From positions 3,224,001 to 3,288,000 of the forward strand of contig NW_027117338.1 in the NCBI RefSeq assembly GCF_038025025.1: a stretch of DNA of 64,000 nt, given 5' to 3'. A program made the translations under genes and the position numbers. The notes under the pieces were generated by a model. The model did no database searches, had not been told where the DNA came from, and saw nothing but the letters and a program-made list of their open reading frames with translations. This DNA comes from Phyllosticta citribraziliensis. Taxonomy: Eukaryota. Of the stretch, positions 49,962 through 64,000 are shown one piece after another. Positions within the stretch are counted from its first letter, which is position 1. Each line of letters begins with the position of its first letter.

Positions 49962-50491
49962 TCGGCACGCGACTCGAATCAGCCCTACGAGACGGCAGGG
50001 TCTACGGCACGGAAAGATGCATCGCGAGTTGACGTCGCGACAAGCCTCAAGGCCGCGCAGGTTCTGCATGTCACATCAGGCCTGACATGCATAGGCACAT
50101 GAAAGAGCACAGGGAGATTCAGGATCGGGGATCCTAACGGGCGCCGGGCTGGCCCAACCCAACGGTGGTTTCCTCTTGAGTGGGCAGCTGAGGCCCTTGA
50201 CGCAACCACCGTTGGCCAGAGTCTATCCAAATGAGATGCTGCAACACTTCTCATGTCACCGTCGACCGCATTTTTGCAAAATACCGTAGGTGCCATGATT
50301 GCTCCGCTCTTTTGCCCCCCCCCCCCCCCGTCAGCGCCATGACTCTGTGTCGCCGGCCCTGGCTGTCCGATGATGCTTTCCTTTAATATCATGGATGCTC
50401 TCGCAATTCCTTGAGTGCAACGGTCGCAGCCAAACTCTCTGTCGTTTTTTTCTTCGCAAGTCATTCCTTTTTTTGCCGAGTAGCGCTCAAG

Positions 50492-52125
50492 ATGCGTTTC
50501 TCATCCACGCTCATTGCGGCTCTGGCCATCATTCCTTCACTGGTCGCCGGCCAACTCTCCGGTCCTGTCGGGCCCAAAACAACCGTCGAGCAAAAGAAGG
50601 GCGTCAAGGTGTGCGACGTGACCCAATTCGGCGCCAAAGCAGACAAATCGACAGATCTGGGGCCCGCCCTCTTCAAAGCGCACGCGGCCTGCAAGACGGG
50701 CGGCGTCGTCGTCATCCCCAAGGGCGACTATGCCATGGCGACGTTCGTCAAGCTGGCCGGCGGCGCGGCGTGGGCGCTGCAGCTCGACGGCGTCATCTAC
50801 CGTACCGGCACAAAGGTCGACAACATGATCATGATCGAGCACACCAAGGACGTCGAGGTCTTCTCCAGCACGGGCGCCGGCGCCATGCAGGGCAATGGCT
50901 TCGAGTTCCATCGCAAGAACTCGCGCACTGGCAGTGGGCCGCGCCTCATACGCTTCTGGGATACGTCGGACTTTTCGTTCCACGATGTCGCCCTCGTCGA
51001 CGCGCCTTCTTTCCATCTCGTCATTGACACGTGCTCGAACGGCGAGATTTACAATCTGGTCATTCGCGGCGCCTACATGGGCGGGACCGACGGCGTCGAC
51101 GTGTGGGGGACCAACCTGTGGCTCCACGACATTATGGTCACCAACAAGGACGAATGCATCACGATCAAGGTAAGCCATGCACTCGCAGCCATCGCACACA
51201 GCAGTGGGACCGTCTCTTCTAACCAGCCCGCCACGCGCACAACAGTCGCCCTCGAAATTCATCCTCATCGAAAGCATATACTGCAACTGGAGCGGCGGCT
51301 GCGGCATGGGCTCGCTGCCCAGCAACACGGACATCAGCAACATCCACTACAAGAACGTGTACACGGTGCGCTCCAACGCCATGATGCTGATCAAGAGCAA
51401 AGGCGGCGGCGGCACCGTCAAGGACGTGCGCCTGGAAAACTTCATCGGCCACAGCAACGCCTACGGCTTCGACCTCGACTCGGACTGGATGGGCCAGAAG
51501 CCCAACCCGGGCCGCGGCGTCTCCATCACCGGCGTCGTCGCCACCAATTGGAAGGGCCGCATGCTGAACGGCGCCCAGCGCGGCGTGCTCAAGGCCGTCT
51601 GCGGCCAGGTGCCGTGCACGGGCATCACGCTCGAAGACGTCGTCCTGGGGACCGAGCAGGGGAACAAGCACCGCAACCAGTGCGGGTCGTCGTACGGCAG
51701 CGGCGGGTGCCTGAAGCCGGGCAGCGGCGCGTCGTATGCGATCGACGAGCAGATGGTGGACGCGCCGACGAGCGGATTCGAGGCGCAGAAGCTCGCCGAC
51801 GACTTGACGAACCACTTTGGCACCGACCAGCCCATCCCTCTTCCTGAGAAGTGGCCGGCGCAGTTCTTCCCGGGGATCAAGCCGCTGAAGGCGTTGGCGG
51901 CTGGCGGCGGTGCTGGCGGGACGACGACGACGACGACCGCTGCGGATAATGTGCAGGAGAAGACGCAGAGCCGTACGTTTCCTATCCACCCCCCCCCCCC
52001 CCCCCCCCCCTCCTCTTATGCTGAGCTCCTCATACTAACAATCTGCAGAGAAACGGCCGCCTCCGCCTCGCCAGCGCCGCCGTCGTCGCAGTGCCGCTGC
52101 CGCCGCCGAGCGCGCTGTCGCCTAA
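50492..52125 (+). CDS. Secreted GH28 rhamnogalacturonase (RGase A-like); introns 51170-51245 and 51973-52048
   Basis: Signal MRFSSTLIAALAIIPSLVAG, QLSGPVGP, LVDAPSFH, GGTDGVDVWG, NKDECITIKSP, WSGGCGMGSL, MMLIKSKGGGG. Confidence 0.93.
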
Positions 52126-52954
52126 GCTGTGCAGCAGTGGGTAAACATGCACGCACGAAGGCAACAGGACACGTAGTGGCAACGAACTGCAAGCGATGGA
52201 AGCAAAGGTAGGCAGGTAAGGCGGAAGGTAGTGGCACTGTATAGTATATATACACGCAGGACACGAAGCGCGAGCATAGCATGCCGGCTGATGCGGAGTG
52301 AATGGGTATAATCGAAACGAAAGTTATGCACGCTAGAAGACATACGATGCAGACAACACGCGGAAAGTGAGAGGTGAAATCGTAGAGTAGGTATACTGCG
52401 TGCCAAACCTCTTCTGCACTCGCTCCTCCTGTCCTTACTATCATTTGCCCACACGCTCAGGAGGTACTGCATTCTCCCGCCACCAACTCAGTTGACTAAG
52501 GATCCCCTCTAACCATCCGCGATGAGAATACTCGGAGCAAACTTATCGTCACGCTCGCTGCGACAAACTCCAAGTCGTGCCGCCGACCAACGCCGCATGT
52601 CCTTCGCCCCAACTCCATGTGTCGTAAAGAGAAGCGCATACAGTCTGGTGGTCTCCATCCATTCAGGATACAAACGACGCCAGTGACGACGAGCGGACAA
52701 GGCCCGTACGAGGTGGCTTGGTCGTCGTGGCTCTGGTCGTACATGCGAGCGCAACTCCTAGCCAGGGAGCGAGCGAGCGAGCCCCCCGTCCAACGCCGGC
52801 CCTCCAGAGTCGTCCTGTCATCTTTTGCTGTAGATTGTATTGAGTTTTTTCCGTACATGCTTTTGACGATTCTTTCTGCTCGTACAGCCCACGCCACGCT
52901 GTCCGTCGCTCGTCCATGAGGCACGAGGCCTTTGGGATCGACCTGCCGGTTCGT

Positions 52955-54337
52955 CTAGTCCATGCCCACGTACTTGAACCAGTTGGGGCGGCAGTCTTCC
53001 TTGTTCAGCCAGGACTCGCCGTCGGTAAACTTGCCGGCCGAGCAGCCCTTGCACTTGGGCGAGTTGGGGCAGTTGAAGTAAGGGATGTGTTGGTAGCCAA
53101 TGTCGCGGAACCTGTATGACGTAGAGTCGTGTCAGCTGTGTGCTCCCTTTCATGGCAAGGGCTGAATGTGCGTCGGCAGGACTTACCAATGGATCTTGCT
53201 CTTGTCCTCGAACAGGCCGAGCGCAATCGAGTGTACCGGAGCGTCGCCCCAGCGCTCATAGAAGAAGCCGCCCGAGCGGTCCAGGTGCTGGAAGAACTCC
53301 TCGTACTGCTTGCTGCGCCAGAAGTTCATGTCGCCAATCTCAAAGTTGCTCCAAAAGTGGCAGGTGCTGTAGCCATTGGCCAGCAGGTTGTGCTCCTCGC
53401 GGCGCTTCGAGTCCGTTAGCCAGTCCATGGCGTTGTTGGGGTGCAGGTAGCGGGCGTGGTCGTCGGACGCCAAAAACTTGAGCGTCTCGGGCCACAGCGT
53501 CGCTATGCTTTGCGGCGAGTCGTAAATGTTGACCGTAAAGCCATATGTCTTGTTGTTGTCATGCATATAGCGGAAGACGTCGTAGTCGACGTCGCAGAAG
53601 AAGTGGACGTGCGGCTCCACGCGCCAGTAGTAGCGGTAGTTTTGCAGGGCCGGGTGCTTGTAGAACATGCCACTGTTCCAGCGACACATTTGGTGGTAGG
53701 AGATCTTCTCGGCGTATTGCACGTCTTGCTCCTTGAGTACTTGGGCCGACTCTTGGAACAGGTCCATGTTGATCCAAGCGGGGACCTCCCAGTGCTCCTT
53801 GGGAACGAGTTCTGCAGCAATTAGCAAGCTGAGTTCAATGTCCTGTTGTCCCATGGCGTACCGTAGCGCACCTCAGCCTTGGTAGCGGCCTTGGTCTTGC
53901 GCTTGAATTCCTCGGTGAATGGTACGTCATTCAAAAATGTCCACGGGTAGTTGAATTTTGAGTTCCATGTCCTCTCCAAGTCGCGCATCGACTGCAGTAT
54001 TTCCTCGAGCTCCGAGTTGCGTACAAGGGAGAGAATGGTGGCGTTGATGCGGTCCGAGTTGGGGTTGTCGGGGGCGTAGTTATTTCCTTCAACTCGTCTC
54101 AATTCGCCAGCAGGCTCGCCAGATACTGGAGAGAGGTTAGACTCAAAGACAAGGGATCTGGGGCTTGAAGAGATGCTAACCCTCGCTCTGGGGGTCGTGG
54201 GTCCATTTGTCTGTCTTGGTGTCGGAGGTTGGTAGCGATATTCTAGGTGTTGAGCCGGAAAAGACCTGGTATAGGACGACGACGAAAAGGACGAGGGTGA
54301 TTGCGGCGAGGGCGCGCAGACCCCGTGGCAGGGCCAT
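52955..54337 (-). CDS. GT15 alpha-1,2-mannosyltransferase (Kre2/Ktr family), 4 exons
   Basis: Type II TM anchor (MALPRGLRALAAITLVLFVVVLYQ), NATILSLVRNSE, SYHQMCRWNSG, YYWRVEP, CHFWSNFEI, FFYERWGDAPVHS. Confidence 0.95.
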
Positions 54338-54554
54338 GGTGTAGAATGGGTTGTGTCCGCAGGCTGGCGACCTGAGGTTGCGTTGCGGTCTTGGGCAGCG
54401 GAGGATTCAAGGAAGGCTGCTCCTATCCGCCAGCTCGCCGCCTCGTCCTGATTGGCCGCCACTCGTGCGCCACAGCTGGTGTGCCACGGGCCGTGACGTG
54501 ACGCGCGGCGCGTCTCCCATCAACACCTCATGTCGACGACACCCAGCCAATGCC

Positions 54555-57472
54555 ATGGCTCACTCGGCCACCATAAACAATACTGGCGCTGACCTCTTTG
54601 TAAACATTGCCGGCTCTTCTCAGGTTCGCTATCCGACCGTCTTCCACACAGCTTCAAACTCACCGTCACCAGGGCAACACCCGCAAATTCAAGAGGTCAA
54701 GGGACGCCTTTCTCCGCGGTCTGCGCTCCCAGCAATGGCAGCGCGTGAACCAGTTTGACGTCCAGGCCAGCTGCGAAGGTCTGGTCGAAAAGTTCTTCGT
54801 CCTCAACCGGCAGGACTTGGCCGAGGCTCTCTCCGATCGCCTCAAAGAATTGTCCAAACGGTCGTCCCGATGGATTCCGGAAATCCTCACTCTGTTACTG
54901 CATCTCCAGGGCGATCCGGTGAATCAGTCTCGGGTTGAAGACTTGGAGAAGCTTAAGCCTCCCGAACCACCGCCTCCACTCACATGGGCCGACATCATTG
55001 CAGACGATCCCCTCGATGAAGAGGGCCTCTGGGATGACGTTGATTATACTCGCTCCTCGGACGACGAGCTTTTGCCGGAGCCCAAGCAACACAAGTCGCG
55101 CAGGCGGGAAATCACGCCAGCCTCGTCGTTGGATGAAGACGACTGGATCGCTGCTGCGCAGGCCTGCGTCGTCGTGCCAGACTCGCAGCCTTTACAGCAA
55201 GTTACAGACGGCCAGTTCTGGAGACAGGAGCACGAATTGTCGCGCACATTGGACCGAGTGACCGTGACAGAGCTGCAAGCCGTGCGGGAGACGCTCTTCA
55301 TGCTCGCTGGTCTTCCAACATCTCTTTACCAGTCAGACTCTTCGAAAAAGATAGGATGCAATGTCAATTATTCCGTCAGTCATGTCATGGCGTCCACGTG
55401 GGGACATCAATTACAAGAATTTGCAGAATTTGGCACGGGGCTATCGCAGCTCCGCCTTTGGACCAAGGAAGCTCAATCCGTCGCGCTTGTACAAACATTT
55501 CGGGCCGCCGTCTTGGAAGAAATAAGGTCGTTCGAAAAGTTTCTATCCGAACTCCAGGCAACCTTCCTCGACTCTGCGGCCGTGGCTGTGTCTATTGCAG
55601 ATGTACTTAGTAGAGTCCGGCCGCAAGCCAGCCTCCGCCTCCGCCTAAAGGACCTCATTCAAAATGCCTCTCAAAAAGTCCAAACCACGCCTTTCGTTCT
55701 TCTCGAAGCGCTCTACGATGAAGTAAATCTGGCTCAAATGACTGGAGAAGCCGACGTGTTCAACTTCCTCGGCCGCATTTTCTTCGCCTGTCTAAAGACA
55801 TACCTCAAGCCGATAAGGAGATGGATGGCAGAGGGGGAGTTGGGAACAGACGACCAAATCTTCTTCGTCGGCACGGCAGACAAGAGCAGTGAAGCCGCCT
55901 CGCTGTGGCACGATCAGTACGTCCTGCGTCAAGATGGCCAAGGACGGCTGCATGCTCCCAGCTTCCTGCATCCCGCCGCCAGAAAGATTTTCAATTCGGG
56001 CAAAAGTGTTGTCTTCCTGCGGGAGATGGGAAAATACGAGCGCGCCGTCTCTACCGGGCAAGAGGAGCCGCGTCTCGACCTCGAGACGGTGTGCAGAAGT
56101 GGTGTGGCCATCCATAACCACTCGGCAATGCCCCTGGTCTCCTTCTCCGAGCTCTTCAACTCGGCGTTTGAGAAATGGATTAGGAGCAAATACACGTTTG
56201 CGTCGTCGGTTCTGCGCGAGCAGCTCTTTACCAACTGCGGGCTCTGGACCTCACTCGACGCCCTGAAACACGTCTACTTTTCCAAAGACGGCACCCTGCT
56301 GCAGGCGTTCGCCGACGCGCTGTTTGACAAGATTGACCGCAACCGCGACGGCTGGAACGACCGCTACCTCCTGACAGAAATCGCCAGGAGCGTGTTCGGC
56401 TCCGTTGCAAGCGTGAGCCCTGAGAAGCTGGGCGTGCGCACCGCGGCGACCAAGGACTCGAGGCGCTCTGTGAAGGCCCTTGCCAGCATTTCTATAGACT
56501 ACTTTGTACGTCCACTCTTCTCGCATTGGTTCTATGTGCACGCTAACAGGCGGCTGCCTCTAGCTCCCTTGGTCCATAACCAACGTCATTCAGCGCAGCT
56601 CGTTACCAGTATATCAACGTATCTCAACGCTCCTCCTACAGACATACCGCGCACGTCACATCCTACGCAGCGCCAGCCTCTCCATTTCCCTCTCCTCAAC
56701 TGATCGCAATCGTGAGGCCCGCCTCCGTACCCTCCTCCGTCACCGCCTCCTCTGGTTCGCCGACACACTACACGCATACACTACAACGACCGCCATTGCG
56801 TCCTCTACAACGGCGCTGCGCAGCGCCCTCGTCACCGCCGACGACATCGACGCCATGGCCGCCCTGCACGCCGCCTTTGTCGCGGACGTCGAACGTCGCT
56901 GCCTGCTTGCGCCCGCACTGCAGCCTATTGCCGATGCTGTTGTCGAGCTGCTCGATATGGCGGTGCGCTTTGTTGATTTGAGTCGTGAGGGCGAAACCGC
57001 GGCTGGCGTCGAGCTCACGAATGCAGGCAAGGGGCGAAGAGGCAGCGCAGCGACAGTCGCGAGTGCCGCTACCACTGGGACGTATCGACGGCGCGACCGG
57101 CCGCGCGACCACCGCCGTGTTTCGGCGATGCAGGTCGCGCTGGTGGAGGAATCGTCGTCCTCAGACTCGGACGACGACGTGGTCGAAAAGGAGGATGAGG
57201 ACGAGGTAGATGAAGACGGAGACAACTCTACCAAATACCTCAAGCCTTTGCCTGCTGATACGACCACACCGCGTCAGCAGTCGGCCGGTTCGTTGGTGTC
57301 GGCTCTCCAGCAAATGGCTCAGCAATTTGAGCAGCTGCACGGCTTCATCGTCGCGGGGCTGCGCGGCGTCAGTCGTGCGGGCGACGAGCGGTGCTGGGAG
57401 ATGCTGGCTGAGCGATTGGAGTGGGAAGGCGTGCAAGGCACTGCAACGCAGGGAAGAGGGAGAGGGAGGTAA
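54555..57472 (+). CDS. Gamma-tubulin complex component (Spc97/Spc98 family, GCP5-like); introns ~54624-54672 and ~56506-56562
   Basis: RVNQFDV...GLVEKF, PEILTLLL, TELQAVRETLFMLAG, TYLKPIRRWMAEGEL, PSFLHP...IFNSGKS, WNDRYLLTE, GLRGVSR...WEMLAERL. Confidence 0.85.
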
Positions 57473-59894: not shown

Positions 59895-60460
59895 ATGTCG
59901 CATCTACTACTTCCTCTCATTTCCGCAGCAGTCGTGGGTCTTTGCGCTTGGATTGCCCTCAAGCTTGTACTGCCTCCACGGGTCCTTGTTCCAAAAAAGC
60001 CCTCGATTACCATTAAACACGCAGACAGAATCTCGGACCCAGGGCGGCGAGATTTCGTAATCCAGATGGTTCAGCGCGCTGTCCAAGATCCTACACTATC
60101 ATTATTCACCAGCGCCACAATGCTGTAAGTGCAAAATTCTGCGCCTCCTTGTCCTTGCAATTCGAGCGAGCTTGCTGAGAAGTGCGCAGTAGCAAACCAC
60201 TCCAGTACGATCCGGACCTCAAGCGCACGTACATTGTTGCCATTCTGCAGACCGAAGACGACGAGAGGGACAACACCTGCTCGGAGCTCGAAATTCACTA
60301 CTCCAACCGTCCCGTGGGGAATGGGAATGTGTGGGCAATAATGACCGGTTGGGGCGTGAACCCAAAGGGGGACTTCGAGGAGAATCTGGTGACTGAGGCC
60401 AACGAAGATCCGGTGTTTGAGGCCAGAGAGATTCGCGGCAAGAATGTGGAGGGGGACTAG
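59895..60460 (+). CDS. Small hypothetical protein with N-terminal hydrophobic/TM segment (~166 aa); intron 60125-60189
   Basis: MSHLLLPLISAAVVGLCAWIALKLVL. The GTAAGT...GCTGAG...CAG intron joins ORFs 59754 and 60182 in frame. Confidence 0.65.
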
Positions 60461-61192: not shown

Positions 61193-62649
61193 ATGGCTTC
61201 CAGTCATGCAGAAGAAATGGCGCGTCGCTGCACTGGCGGCAAAGCTCCTCGACTGGCTCAACACTTCTACCGACACGTTCGCGACTCAGATGGCCATCTC
61301 ACTTTGAGATACTGGTCGGGCGCCGAAAGCAGTCTTGCACCTCTCTACTCCTTTCAGGTATGACCACTCCCGAGCTTATCATGTCTCAACACATACTGAT
61401 CATACAGTTTTACGTCACCTACGACATGTCCGGGGCTGCCAATTCTGAGCTGGAGGCTCTCGCGCGCGAGCTGATGTGCAGAATTCCGGATGGCACATGG
61501 GACCCGGGTGCCATTCATGCCCGTCTGGACGTCCATTTCCTCGGTTGTGGCGCCAGCACAGAGGATTGTGTCGCACACTACCGCCGCTTCAAGGACAATC
61601 CACCCGACGGTCCGTCGATGCGAATCATTCCTTCTTACTTTTCCGAGTCCTACTGCCACCACCACTGTCTCTTCTTCAAAATCGAGGATCCCAATTGGAA
61701 GGACGATGAAATCGGCTTGAAGAGGGTAGAATTTGATCATAAGGAGTCTGGTCGACCCGATGCGGAGGAGGAAAATATCACAACTGGCGAGGCAGCTGTG
61801 CTCTGTGGTAACGTGTACCTCATGCCACACCACGATGGCAACTTCAGAGATGAATGCGAGGGCCTTTATCAAGCAGCGGTAAAGGCTGGCTTGAATGAAT
61901 GGACTTCCGATCCCTTCTCCAGGCCTGTCAATCTCATGGACACCAGCCCCGTCGACGTCATGGCTTCGCCTGCCGCCCTGCCTCCTCGTCAGATCAACCT
62001 CGACCGTCACTTTCGCTACCTTCAAGCCCATGATGGCCATTTGGTTTTGAGTGTCTGGGCCGGCTGCAGTCTTCCACCTCTGTACTCGTTCCAGGTATTT
62101 CTCGTCCGAATTTTCTTGTGCCCGGGCTGATTGGTGTAGTTCTACGTCACGTACGACCTTTCTGGAGTGGAAAATTCCGGCTTCGAAGCACTTGCCCGGC
62201 GACTTCACGAAAGGATTCTGGATGACGACATGGCTTCAAAGCCAATTCGCTTCGACGTGCACCTCGTTGGACCGCAAGCCACGATCGAAGACTGCATCGC
62301 GCTCTACCGCCATTCCAAGGAAAACCCCCCTAGTGACCCATCAGCTCGCGTCGTGGCTTCATACAATCGCGACGACGATTGGAGCTACCACTCTCACCTC
62401 TTGATAATCTCGAAGACCAAATGGGAGGACCGCGTCGGGGGAGGAATGCGCCGAGTTTCTTTTGACCCCGTGGAGTCCAAGCGTGTCGCGAACCATCGTC
62501 CGACGCTCAAGCGTTGGAGCGTACTTTACGAGGTGAGTGGATTCTGCAAGGATGTATATGAGTCTGTGGGTACGCCGGCGGGGTGCATCAGGGAGGAACG
62601 TGAGGCTGCTTATGACGCGGCAAAGGAGAAGGGCTTGACTGAGTGGTGA
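61193..62649 (+). CDS. Unknown-function protein with two tandem copies of a ~210-aa domain (~453 aa); exons 61193-61357, 61408-62094, 62140-62649
   Basis: Both halves contain DGH..L..W.G..SL.PLYSFQ|FYVTYD.SG...EALAR.L...R.DVH...EDC.A.YR..K.NPP..PS.R...SY...RV.FD...Y.AA...GL.EW. Canonical phase-0 introns keep the frame. Confidence 0.85.
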
Positions 62650-62955
62650 AGAGGCCACACGGACGATCATGGAGAAGTCGAATTCTTGGATTTGGCTGGA
62701 TGGTAGAAGAACTTGCGGGCTTTCATGGTGCAATGGAGGCACGTTTTCCATAAATGAATGAGATACCATATACACGGAAAAGACGGAGCTCTTCGCACTG
62801 CCGTCATCATCCTCCCCTGGCTCGACACGCGGGAATTTGAGCTTTTCGGCGGTCAGTTGCTTGCGCCCCCTCTAAAAGCCTGCCCAACGTCAAACTCCAA
62901 CCAACCTTCATCATATCTTGCGCGCAACACTTGAACGTTGAAGTCAACCAACGCC

Positions 62956-63653
62956 ATGCCTTCCCGCTCTGGAGCGAAGCGTCGCAAGGTTACGGCCTCG
63001 GCCCCAGTCCGCCTGCTCGACTTTTATCGACACTACGAGGATCATGACAGATATCCTAGCCTGAGCTACTGGTGTGGCAAATGTAGCCTTCCACCTCTCT
63101 TCTCGTTCCAGGTATGAAATTTGCTCTGCATGACCTACCTCTCGAGTTGTACTAATGCGACCAGGTTTACGTTACGTACGATGTCTCTGCAGCCGAGAAA
63201 TCTGACCTGGAGGCACTTGCAAAGAAGTTACATCAAACTCTCCTGGTAAGCAATTTGGATACGAGCCTGGTTCGTCTCGACCTCCACTTCCTTGAACCGA
63301 ACGCCAGCACCGAGAACTGTGCGGCGCACTACAACCGCGGCAAGGTCTTTCCCTTCGATGACCCATCGCTGCGCATCATTCCCTCTTACGTCTCTCCGGG
63401 CTACCATCGTTGGAACTCGTACTTCTTCAAGATCTTGGGTCCGGACTGGGAGCGTGATGGCGCAAAGTTGACGAGCGTGTCTTTCGACTCAGAGTCCTCC
63501 GATGCCGCCACGGATGGCTTTCCATTTCTTGAGGAGCCCACAAGCATCGACGCGGCAAAAGAGACTTCTGTTTACTTCTGCGGATCTGCGGATGCCAAAG
63601 ACTGCGAGGTGGTCTATGAACTAGCCGAAGCCGCGGGCTTGACCGAATGGTGA
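62956..63653 (+). CDS. Single-domain paralog of the same unknown family (~214 aa); exons 62956-63111, 63165-63653
   Basis: MPSRSGAKRRKVTASAPVRLLDFYRHYEDHDRYPSLSYWCGKCSLPPLFSFQ|VYVTYDVS...LEALAKKL...RLDLHFL...TENCAAHY...PSLRIIPSY...GLTEW*. Confidence 0.85.
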
Positions 63654-64000
63654 ATACAAACGCTTTCTCAAGACAACGCGGTCATCGTTTCTAGCAAAAT
63701 GTGGAGTGTTCAAGGGCAAGTAGCATGTCACTGGCCGAGGGAAGGTGTTTAAGACGCTTGCGGAGCATTCAAGCCCAGATTTCACTGGTCGATAGAAGGA
63801 GTTTGTGTGTGAATGGAGCATCCGAACTTGGTGCTTTGCGGGCATTTGAGGAGCATTCAGGCGCGGATTTTGCAGGTCAATTCAGAAGAATTCTCATGGA
63901 GTATTGAGACGTGCGGAATTCACTGTGACAGAGTAGCATGCACGAGGCGGATAGAACCATCACTTTCATTGAAGTGTGTCGCTGGTATACCTCGGACCGT

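Follow-up and report, generated by a model that had tools for sequence, protein, structure and literature searches.

A fungal domain family absent from the domain databases, present in three tandem copies in Phyllosticta citribraziliensis and carrying histone H3-like tails in some of its members

What are the three similar coding units near the end of a 64,000-nucleotide stretch of the Phyllosticta citribraziliensis genome (contig NW_027117338.1, positions 3,224,001 to 3,288,000, the whole of which is called the window here), and what might their products do? The species belongs to the Dothideomycetes, order Botryosphaeriales. The initial annotation of the window had placed a tandem array of three copies of an unrecognised domain at 61193-63653 on the plus strand. 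Three intact copies of one domain of about 210 amino acids (aa) are present there; however, they are arranged as two genes and not as a three-gene array, units 1 and 2 being fused in a single 453-aa frame. Judged by sequence comparison, the domain represents a real, undescribed family that has no counterpart in Pfam, NCBIfam or the sequences of the Protein Data Bank (PDB). The best explanation reached in this study combines this gene anatomy, the family, a predicted fold and a role as a binding module; taken as a whole it is tentative and falls somewhat short of being probable.

Gene 1 consists of three exons that carry the units D1 and D2 in a single frame, and its spliced product agrees letter for letter with P0010, a deposited uncharacterized protein of the same species (J3D65DRAFT_673811). 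Gene 2, which begins 306 bp downstream of gene 1, has two exons and carries the single unit G2 (Table 1). Joining its exons gives an intact 214-aa frame, to which P0006 of P. citrichinensis comes nearest among the deposited proteins (80% identity); none of the four matches of the protein search was an identical deposited copy. The three short introns are all in phase 0 and lie immediately 3' of S-F-Q codons, opening with GTATGA or GTATTT, carrying a branch-point-like CTGAT or CTAAT near the 3' end and closing with YAG. The motif blocks and the intron coordinates are thus present in the sequence as the initial annotation described them, but ordinary annotation does not overlook the family, gene 1 having already been deposited with correct splicing. 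The three units match one another and Phyllosticta homologues in tblastn searches at E-values of 1e-21 to 1e-97, and no further copy elsewhere in the window was matched below E 0.2.

Transcript evidence was drawn from contigs (Logan) of two public runs, X1 and X2, both guessed to be RNA, which were aligned to the locus; none of the runs listed as containing the stretch is recorded as RNA. One X1 contig of 186 nucleotides (nt) joins 62092 to 62138 and skips 45 nt that have GT..AG ends when the cut is moved by +2, which corresponds to intron 2. Other X1 contigs cover 62266-62549, in exon 3 of gene 1, and 63227-63477, in exon 2 of gene 2, and an X2 contig (62595-62786) spans the stop of gene 1. 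Both genes are therefore covered by contigs of what is probably an RNA run. The splice junctions had been proposed for confirmation by RNA reads; that of intron 2 is joined in a contig of the probable RNA run, but the contigs span neither intron 1 nor intron 3, the D1-D2 junction likewise lying outside the covered stretches.

Searches for a known identity of the domain were consistently negative. No Pfam match above cut-off was obtained for the exons of the two genes, for 33 true relatives or for any of 41 aligned members scanned at E ≤ 5, among which no Pfam family was matched more than once; NCBIfam profiles gave no match to the domain. When the sequences of all PDB chains were compared with the 41-sequence profile, there was no match at E ≤ 10, and a 6-sequence profile gave one noise match. 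The ESM Atlas, queried with P0008 and P0073, returned no usable neighbour. Full-text literature searches yielded no description of the family, six locus tags or accessions of its members matching no paper, though the orthogroup tables of the Phyllosticta genome paper (PMC9073689) may list it; among papers on histone mimics or the histone H3 tail in fungi, the titles and abstract openings pointed to none on this domain family. The domain accordingly remains unrecognised, as the initial annotation had it, and no family match that would remove its novelty appeared.

The family extends well beyond the genus. When 1.84 billion protein representatives were searched with the family profile, 37 matched at E ≤ 1e-3, 17 at E ≤ 1e-10 and 7 at E ≤ 1e-30; one of the 37, P0041, is a bacterial Big_7 Ig-repeat false positive, leaving 36 true representatives. 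A word-indexed protein search returned Phyllosticta proteins only, and a second search of this kind, made with 26 aligned members, returned 22 proteins, further or overlapping, all of which carry source names. All source-named members are annotated as hypothetical and come from 13 genera of Pezizomycotina, namely Phyllosticta (five species), Lasiodiplodia, Diplodia, Coniosporium, Bipolaris, Plenodomus, Xylaria, Hypoxylon, Monosporascus, Thozetella, Aspergillus (A. egyptiacus) and the lichen fungi Pleopsidium and Circinaria. These genera are taken by us to represent four classes, and profile E-values to members in other fungal classes reach down to 1e-45 to 1e-53. Because named relatives occur in 13 Pezizomycotina genera, the family is, on this evidence, old, sparse and patchy, and the idea of a private Phyllosticta invention has to be given up.

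Could the three copies nevertheless be decaying duplicates, or artefacts of annotation, without function? The absence of gene 2 from the four deposited-protein matches returned, the merged or mis-spliced state of several deposited models in relatives and the contig support for one of the three introns might be read in this way. Yet the frames are intact throughout and no family-invariant residue has been lost, an orthologue of each unit is maintained across species, the profile reaches other fungal classes at the E-values just given, probable-RNA contigs lie on both genes, and covariation in the family is strong enough to yield a structural model with a predicted local distance difference test score (pLDDT) of 88, so that this explanation is practically excluded. 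Across an alignment of 51 units, the positions closest to invariance are R (50), F (50), Y (49), Y (48), W (48), T (47) and D (47), with D, C and L next (44 each), and D1, D2 and G2 retain all ten of these residues. Pairwise non-synonymous divergence (dN) among the three units is 0.51-0.60 and synonymous divergence (dS) 1.4-2.1; the ratio of about 0.25-0.36 is, dS being saturated, a rough sign of constraint. The initial annotation's suggestion of intact frames under selection agrees with a ratio that, within the limit set by this saturation, is not near 1 and with the retention of the near-invariant residues.

It was also observed that 39 of the 51 units end, or end the domain, with Trp in a G-x-x-x-W motif, which reads GLNEW in D1 and GLTEW in D2 (62632-62646) and G2 (63636-63650). 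That even the final residue is conserved points to a possible docking of the free C-terminus.

The history of the copies was followed in a maximum-likelihood tree of 48 units from 42 chosen proteins, each unit covering at least 140 profile positions and near-identical strain copies and fragments being omitted. D1, D2 and G2 fall into a single Phyllosticta clade of 11 units, supported by a Shimodaira-Hasegawa-like approximate likelihood ratio test (SH-aLRT) value of 97. Within it, D1 clusters with P0011_d1 and P. capitalensis P0014 (SH-aLRT 96), D2 with P0011_d2 and P. capitalensis P0013_d1 (98), and G2 with P0006 and P. capitalensis P0008 (96). Since each unit has its own P. capitalensis orthologue, the triplication is older than the split of these species. 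The sister clade, also of 11 units (SH-aLRT 99), forms a second subfamily restricted to Phyllosticta, whose members have a short extension at the C-terminus; at least three P. citribraziliensis units belong to it (P0024 and the merged model P0087), which brings this species to at least six units overall. With two Phyllosticta clades in the tree and this number of units in one species, the lineage expansion proposed by the initial annotation is well founded.

The D1-D2 fusion, a frame of 453/454 aa, is found in P. citribraziliensis and P. citriasiana, whereas P. capitalensis has the D1 orthologue as a separate protein of 215 aa (P0014 and three strain copies of it). The fusion thus looks derived, the alternative being a split in P. 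capitalensis. Two-domain forms recur in the family (P0010, P0011, P0050 and P0068/P0069). The accession numbers of the P. capitalensis paralogues lie within about ten of one another, which suggests one genomic cluster, and the window probably cuts such a paralogue cluster at base 64000. In P. citribraziliensis, P0024 is encoded on a contig equal in length to that of P0010.

The position after SFQ is also where several deposited models differ. P0079 has a 17-residue in-frame insert directly after SFQ that is absent from P0014, P0086 has a 7-residue insert there compared with P0018, and P0087 lacks 11 residues there compared with P0025. These inserts and gaps suggest that introns at the same codon were mis-modelled, both in paralogues of P. 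capitalensis and in members of the second subfamily. More generally, deposited models of Phyllosticta and Coniosporium that are merged with neighbours, read through an intron or use a wrong splice site include P0007, P0012, P0013, P0072, P0079, P0086, P0087 and P0091. The cluster easily misleads automatic annotation, and knowledge of the family is useful for correcting merged or mis-spliced models.

For the fold, an AlphaFold model was built on P0006, which is orthologous to gene 2 and 80% identical to it. With 41 sequences the model reached a pLDDT of 88.4 and a predicted template modelling score of 0.84, compared with a pLDDT of 40.4 with 6 sequences, a rise that is explained by the sufficient covariation in the 41 sequences. 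Strands were predicted at residues 21-28, 34-41, 50-55, 89-94, 135-142, 152-159 and 171-176, and helices at 64-79, 101-113, 178-189 and 192-206. The domain is accordingly predicted to be a compact acidic alpha/beta unit, with an N-terminal beta-hairpin, a beta-alpha-beta-alpha-beta-beta-beta-alpha core and a C-terminal helix usually ending in Trp. A Foldseek search of the model against the PDB gave nothing at E ≤ 0.001, the best template modelling score being 0.22. The structural matches that were obtained align residues ~46-195 of the model with the whole target domain, with identical element order, and they may be used as a lead on architecture, not on membership. The model is confident and has no clear solved relative, its likeness to solved folds being weak.

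The predicted core is strongly acidic. Across 32 members its median net charge is -16 and its median isoelectric point 4.7 (D1 -15, G2 -15, D2 -5), and the N-terminal tails of the same members have a median charge of +2.5 (G2 tail +6). No hydrophobic N-terminal run was found in either gene product, which makes secretion look unlikely, as had been proposed. One apparent match was set aside: the beta-hairpin of D1, HFYRHVRDSDGHLTLRYWSG (aa 23-44, 61259-61324), weakly resembled a C-terminal module of Bacillus cellulases (4uz8) over 26 residues at E 0.022, and since the family profile gave no matches this was treated as probable chance.

Given the weak structural likeness, it has to be asked whether the domain is distantly related to the part of class II aminoacyl-tRNA synthetases that binds the anticodon (HGTP_anticodon, PF03129), or to another member of that fold group, and binds RNA or nucleotides. 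PF03129 belongs to the SCOP fold 'anticodon-binding domain-like'. None of the 41 members matches PF03129 at E ≤ 5, and neither do the exons of the two genes or 34 relatives; the relationship would have to be one without sequence similarity, at a weak structural Z-score and without Foldseek support. Unlike the anticodon-binding domain, the domain studied here has an additional N-terminal beta-hairpin and C-terminal helices, and the 453-aa and 214-aa proteins contain neither a synthetase catalytic domain nor any other domain. Direct RNA binding is disfavoured because the core is acidic, the surface charge not being of the RNA-binding type. Such a relationship is considered improbable, less likely than either a binding module or an enzyme.

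In a PDB search with aa 1-55 of gene 1, which include its N-terminal tail (E ≤ 10), 29 of the 33 matches were histone H3 tail peptides or H3, and with aa 1-25 the best 60 of 127 matches were all H3 tails (best E 0.047). Residues 6-21 align to H3 residues 3-18, and ARRCTGGKAPR (aa 10-20) is identical to ARKSTGGKAPR of H3 (7-17) at nine of 11 positions. The stretch MARRCTGGKAPR is identical at 12 of 12 positions between P0010 and P0011 of P. citriasiana, proteins that are 70% identical overall. A shuffle test was applied to 39 family representatives, of which two had tails too short to use; among the 37 tested, 11 tails were closer to H3 7-18 than their own shuffles at p<0.05 and nine at p<0.01. 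H3-like tails occur in several clades, including both Phyllosticta subfamilies, Coniosporium, Pleopsidium and others, and share a core of K-S-T-G-G-x-x-P, the broader motif being approximately [KR]-[ST]-T-G-G-x-x-P.

A different type of tail was noted in one clade (P0030, P0073, P0074, P0076, P0081 and P0082, including Bipolaris, Hypoxylon, Monosporascus and Plenodomus), which has repeated R-G-G or G-R-G-G motifs. MAFFT placed these RGG-type motifs in the K-S-T-G-G columns of the other clades.

With these elements in hand, the domain may be a module that binds proteins inside the cell, probably in the nucleus, and not a recognisable enzyme, a reading that is favoured here and still doubtful. 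The basic tail would offer a short linear motif to partners that ordinarily deal with H3-like tails, the acidic core would bind a basic partner, and the domains would act in pairs, as is hinted by the recurrence of two-domain forms. Almost as likely, and equally doubtful by itself, is an enzymatic role in which the domain would act on small molecules or protein side chains and its tandem copies would have diversified in substrate, in the manner of accessory-metabolism families. An enzyme would also be compatible with some ten polar residues that are conserved (T, R, D, C, Y/H, R, S, Y, D); the T that closes the YVT strand, the R-x-D strand, the Cys that opens the second helix together with the H/Y-R after it, the P-S-Y loop and the F-D strand end would then form the active site. 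However, no catalytic motif of known families was found with Pfam or NCBIfam, the Cys is replaced in seven of 51 units, and the His/Tyr position is variable, D2 having L at the His and G2 having N at the Arg. In addition, R-x-D is predicted to lie at a strand start, which is not the usual ligand-binding edge, and the neighbours in the window do not form a biosynthetic cluster.

A more specific version of the binding-module reading would be an endogenous fungal system of histone-tail mimicry, in which the tail engages enzymes or readers of H3 9-16, the acidic core binds histones or another basic chromatin partner, and the expansion diversifies chromatin decoys or adaptors. The G-K-x-P context of K14 is retained in the tail of gene 1, and this version is nevertheless regarded as unlikely.

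Several observations weigh against the best explanation, including the binding module and its H3-like tail. The shuffle test left 26 of the 37 tails as not H3-like, including those of gene 2, the Lasiodiplodia proteins and the whole T-R-G-G-G (RGG-type) clade, and D2 has no tail. Gene 1 itself has R at the position of H3 K9 and C at that of S10, the K14-like lysine alone being retained; the K14 position is variable in distant relatives that keep K-S-T-G-G, and no single modifiable residue is retained across the whole family. The E-values of the H3 matches are no better than 0.05-1, and whole-protein PDB searches with the distant members P0029 and P0034 returned no H3. Some of the deposited two-domain forms are merged gene models (e.g., P0007, P0012, P0013, P0087 and P0091), and the RNA nature of run X1 is a guess.

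The coordinates of the features are collected in Table 1. The initial annotation had described the region as poor in housekeeping genes, which is at odds with the 10 kb upstream of the locus, where a GH28 hydrolase, a GT15 mannosyltransferase and a gamma-tubulin complex component are encoded. A small gene also lies upstream at approximately 59.9-60.46 kb on the plus strand (including 59919-60316); its product probably has a membrane helix at the N-terminus and matches no Pfam family. The 270-aa model P0007, from P. citrichinensis strain BKA80, splices this small upstream gene straight to the second exon of the gene 2 orthologue; the model may be wrong, or else gene 1 is missing in that strain.

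Table 1. Features of the two-gene locus and its upstream neighbours (window coordinates)
Feature	Position	Strand	Evidence or remark
GH28/rhamnogalacturonase-like hydrolase	within 50387-57472	+	upstream neighbour
GT15 alpha-1,2-mannosyltransferase	within 50387-57472	-	upstream neighbour
GCP5/Mod21-type gamma-tubulin complex component	within 50387-57472	+	upstream neighbour
Gene 1 exon 1 (aa 1-55), from start ATG: basic tail and N-terminal beta-hairpin of D1, end LYSFQ	61193-61357	+	translation; spliced product = P0010
H3-like tail motif, gene 1 aa 10-20, ARRCTGGKAPR	61220-61252	+	PDB search with aa 1-25; shuffle test p=0.002
Intron 1, 50 nt, phase 0, GTATGA...CTGAT...CAG	61358-61407	+	sequence; removal yields P0010 exactly
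Gene 1 exon 2 (aa 56-284): D1 body to W220 (61902), linker, N-terminal part of D2	61408-62094	+	229-codon open frame
D1-D2 linker, 11 aa, inside uninterrupted exon 2	61903-61935	+	hmmsearch envelopes D1 1-220, D2 232-453
Intron 2, 45 nt, phase 0, GTATTT...CTGAT...TAG	62095-62139	+	sequence; X1 contig junction
Gene 1 exon 3 (aa 285-453 and stop): D2 body, end GLTEW	62140-62649	+	translation; X1, X2 contigs
Gene 2 exon 1 (aa 1-52): basic tail with KRRK cluster and beta-hairpin, end LFSFQ	62956-63111	+	87% identical to P0006 residues 1-53
Intron 3, 53 nt, phase 0, GTATGA...CTAAT...CAG	63112-63164	+	sequence; splicing gives intact 214-aa frame
Gene 2 exon 2 (aa 53-214 and stop): G2 body, end GLTEW	63165-63653	+	80% identical to P0006; X1 contig

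The family lends itself well to a new Pfam entry and to structure determination, and its expansion took place in a genus that comprises the citrus black spot fungus as well as harmless relatives of that fungus. A functional H3-like tail, if true, would represent a rare case of histone-tail mimicry by a non-viral protein family of the fungal cell's own; if not, this would be one more lineage-expanded family, chiefly of use for annotation.

Histone-like motifs are familiar from other non-histone proteins. G9a and GLP automethylate H3-like motifs, which then bind HP1 (PMC9768651), and human H3 N-terminal mimicry proteins, e.g., VRK1, are reported to bind PHD and Tudor readers (PMC8166343). As in these cases, a short stretch of the disordered N-terminal tail of gene 1 nearly copies H3, and it is fully conserved across two species. 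Unlike the H3 N-terminal mimicry proteins, gene 1 copies H3 7-17 and not the extreme N-terminus; it also differs from H3 mimics in having R and C as the equivalents of K9 and S10 and in the partial conservation of the motif, which occurs in 11 of 37 family tails. The locus also resembles ordinary lineage-specific tandem expansions of uncharacterised fungal proteins in its clustered paralogues, common intron position, gene fusion and patchy taxonomy. It departs from them in the confident fold model without a clear structural relative and in the conserved tail motif, as well as in the spread of the domain family, which presumably spans four classes of Pezizomycotina.

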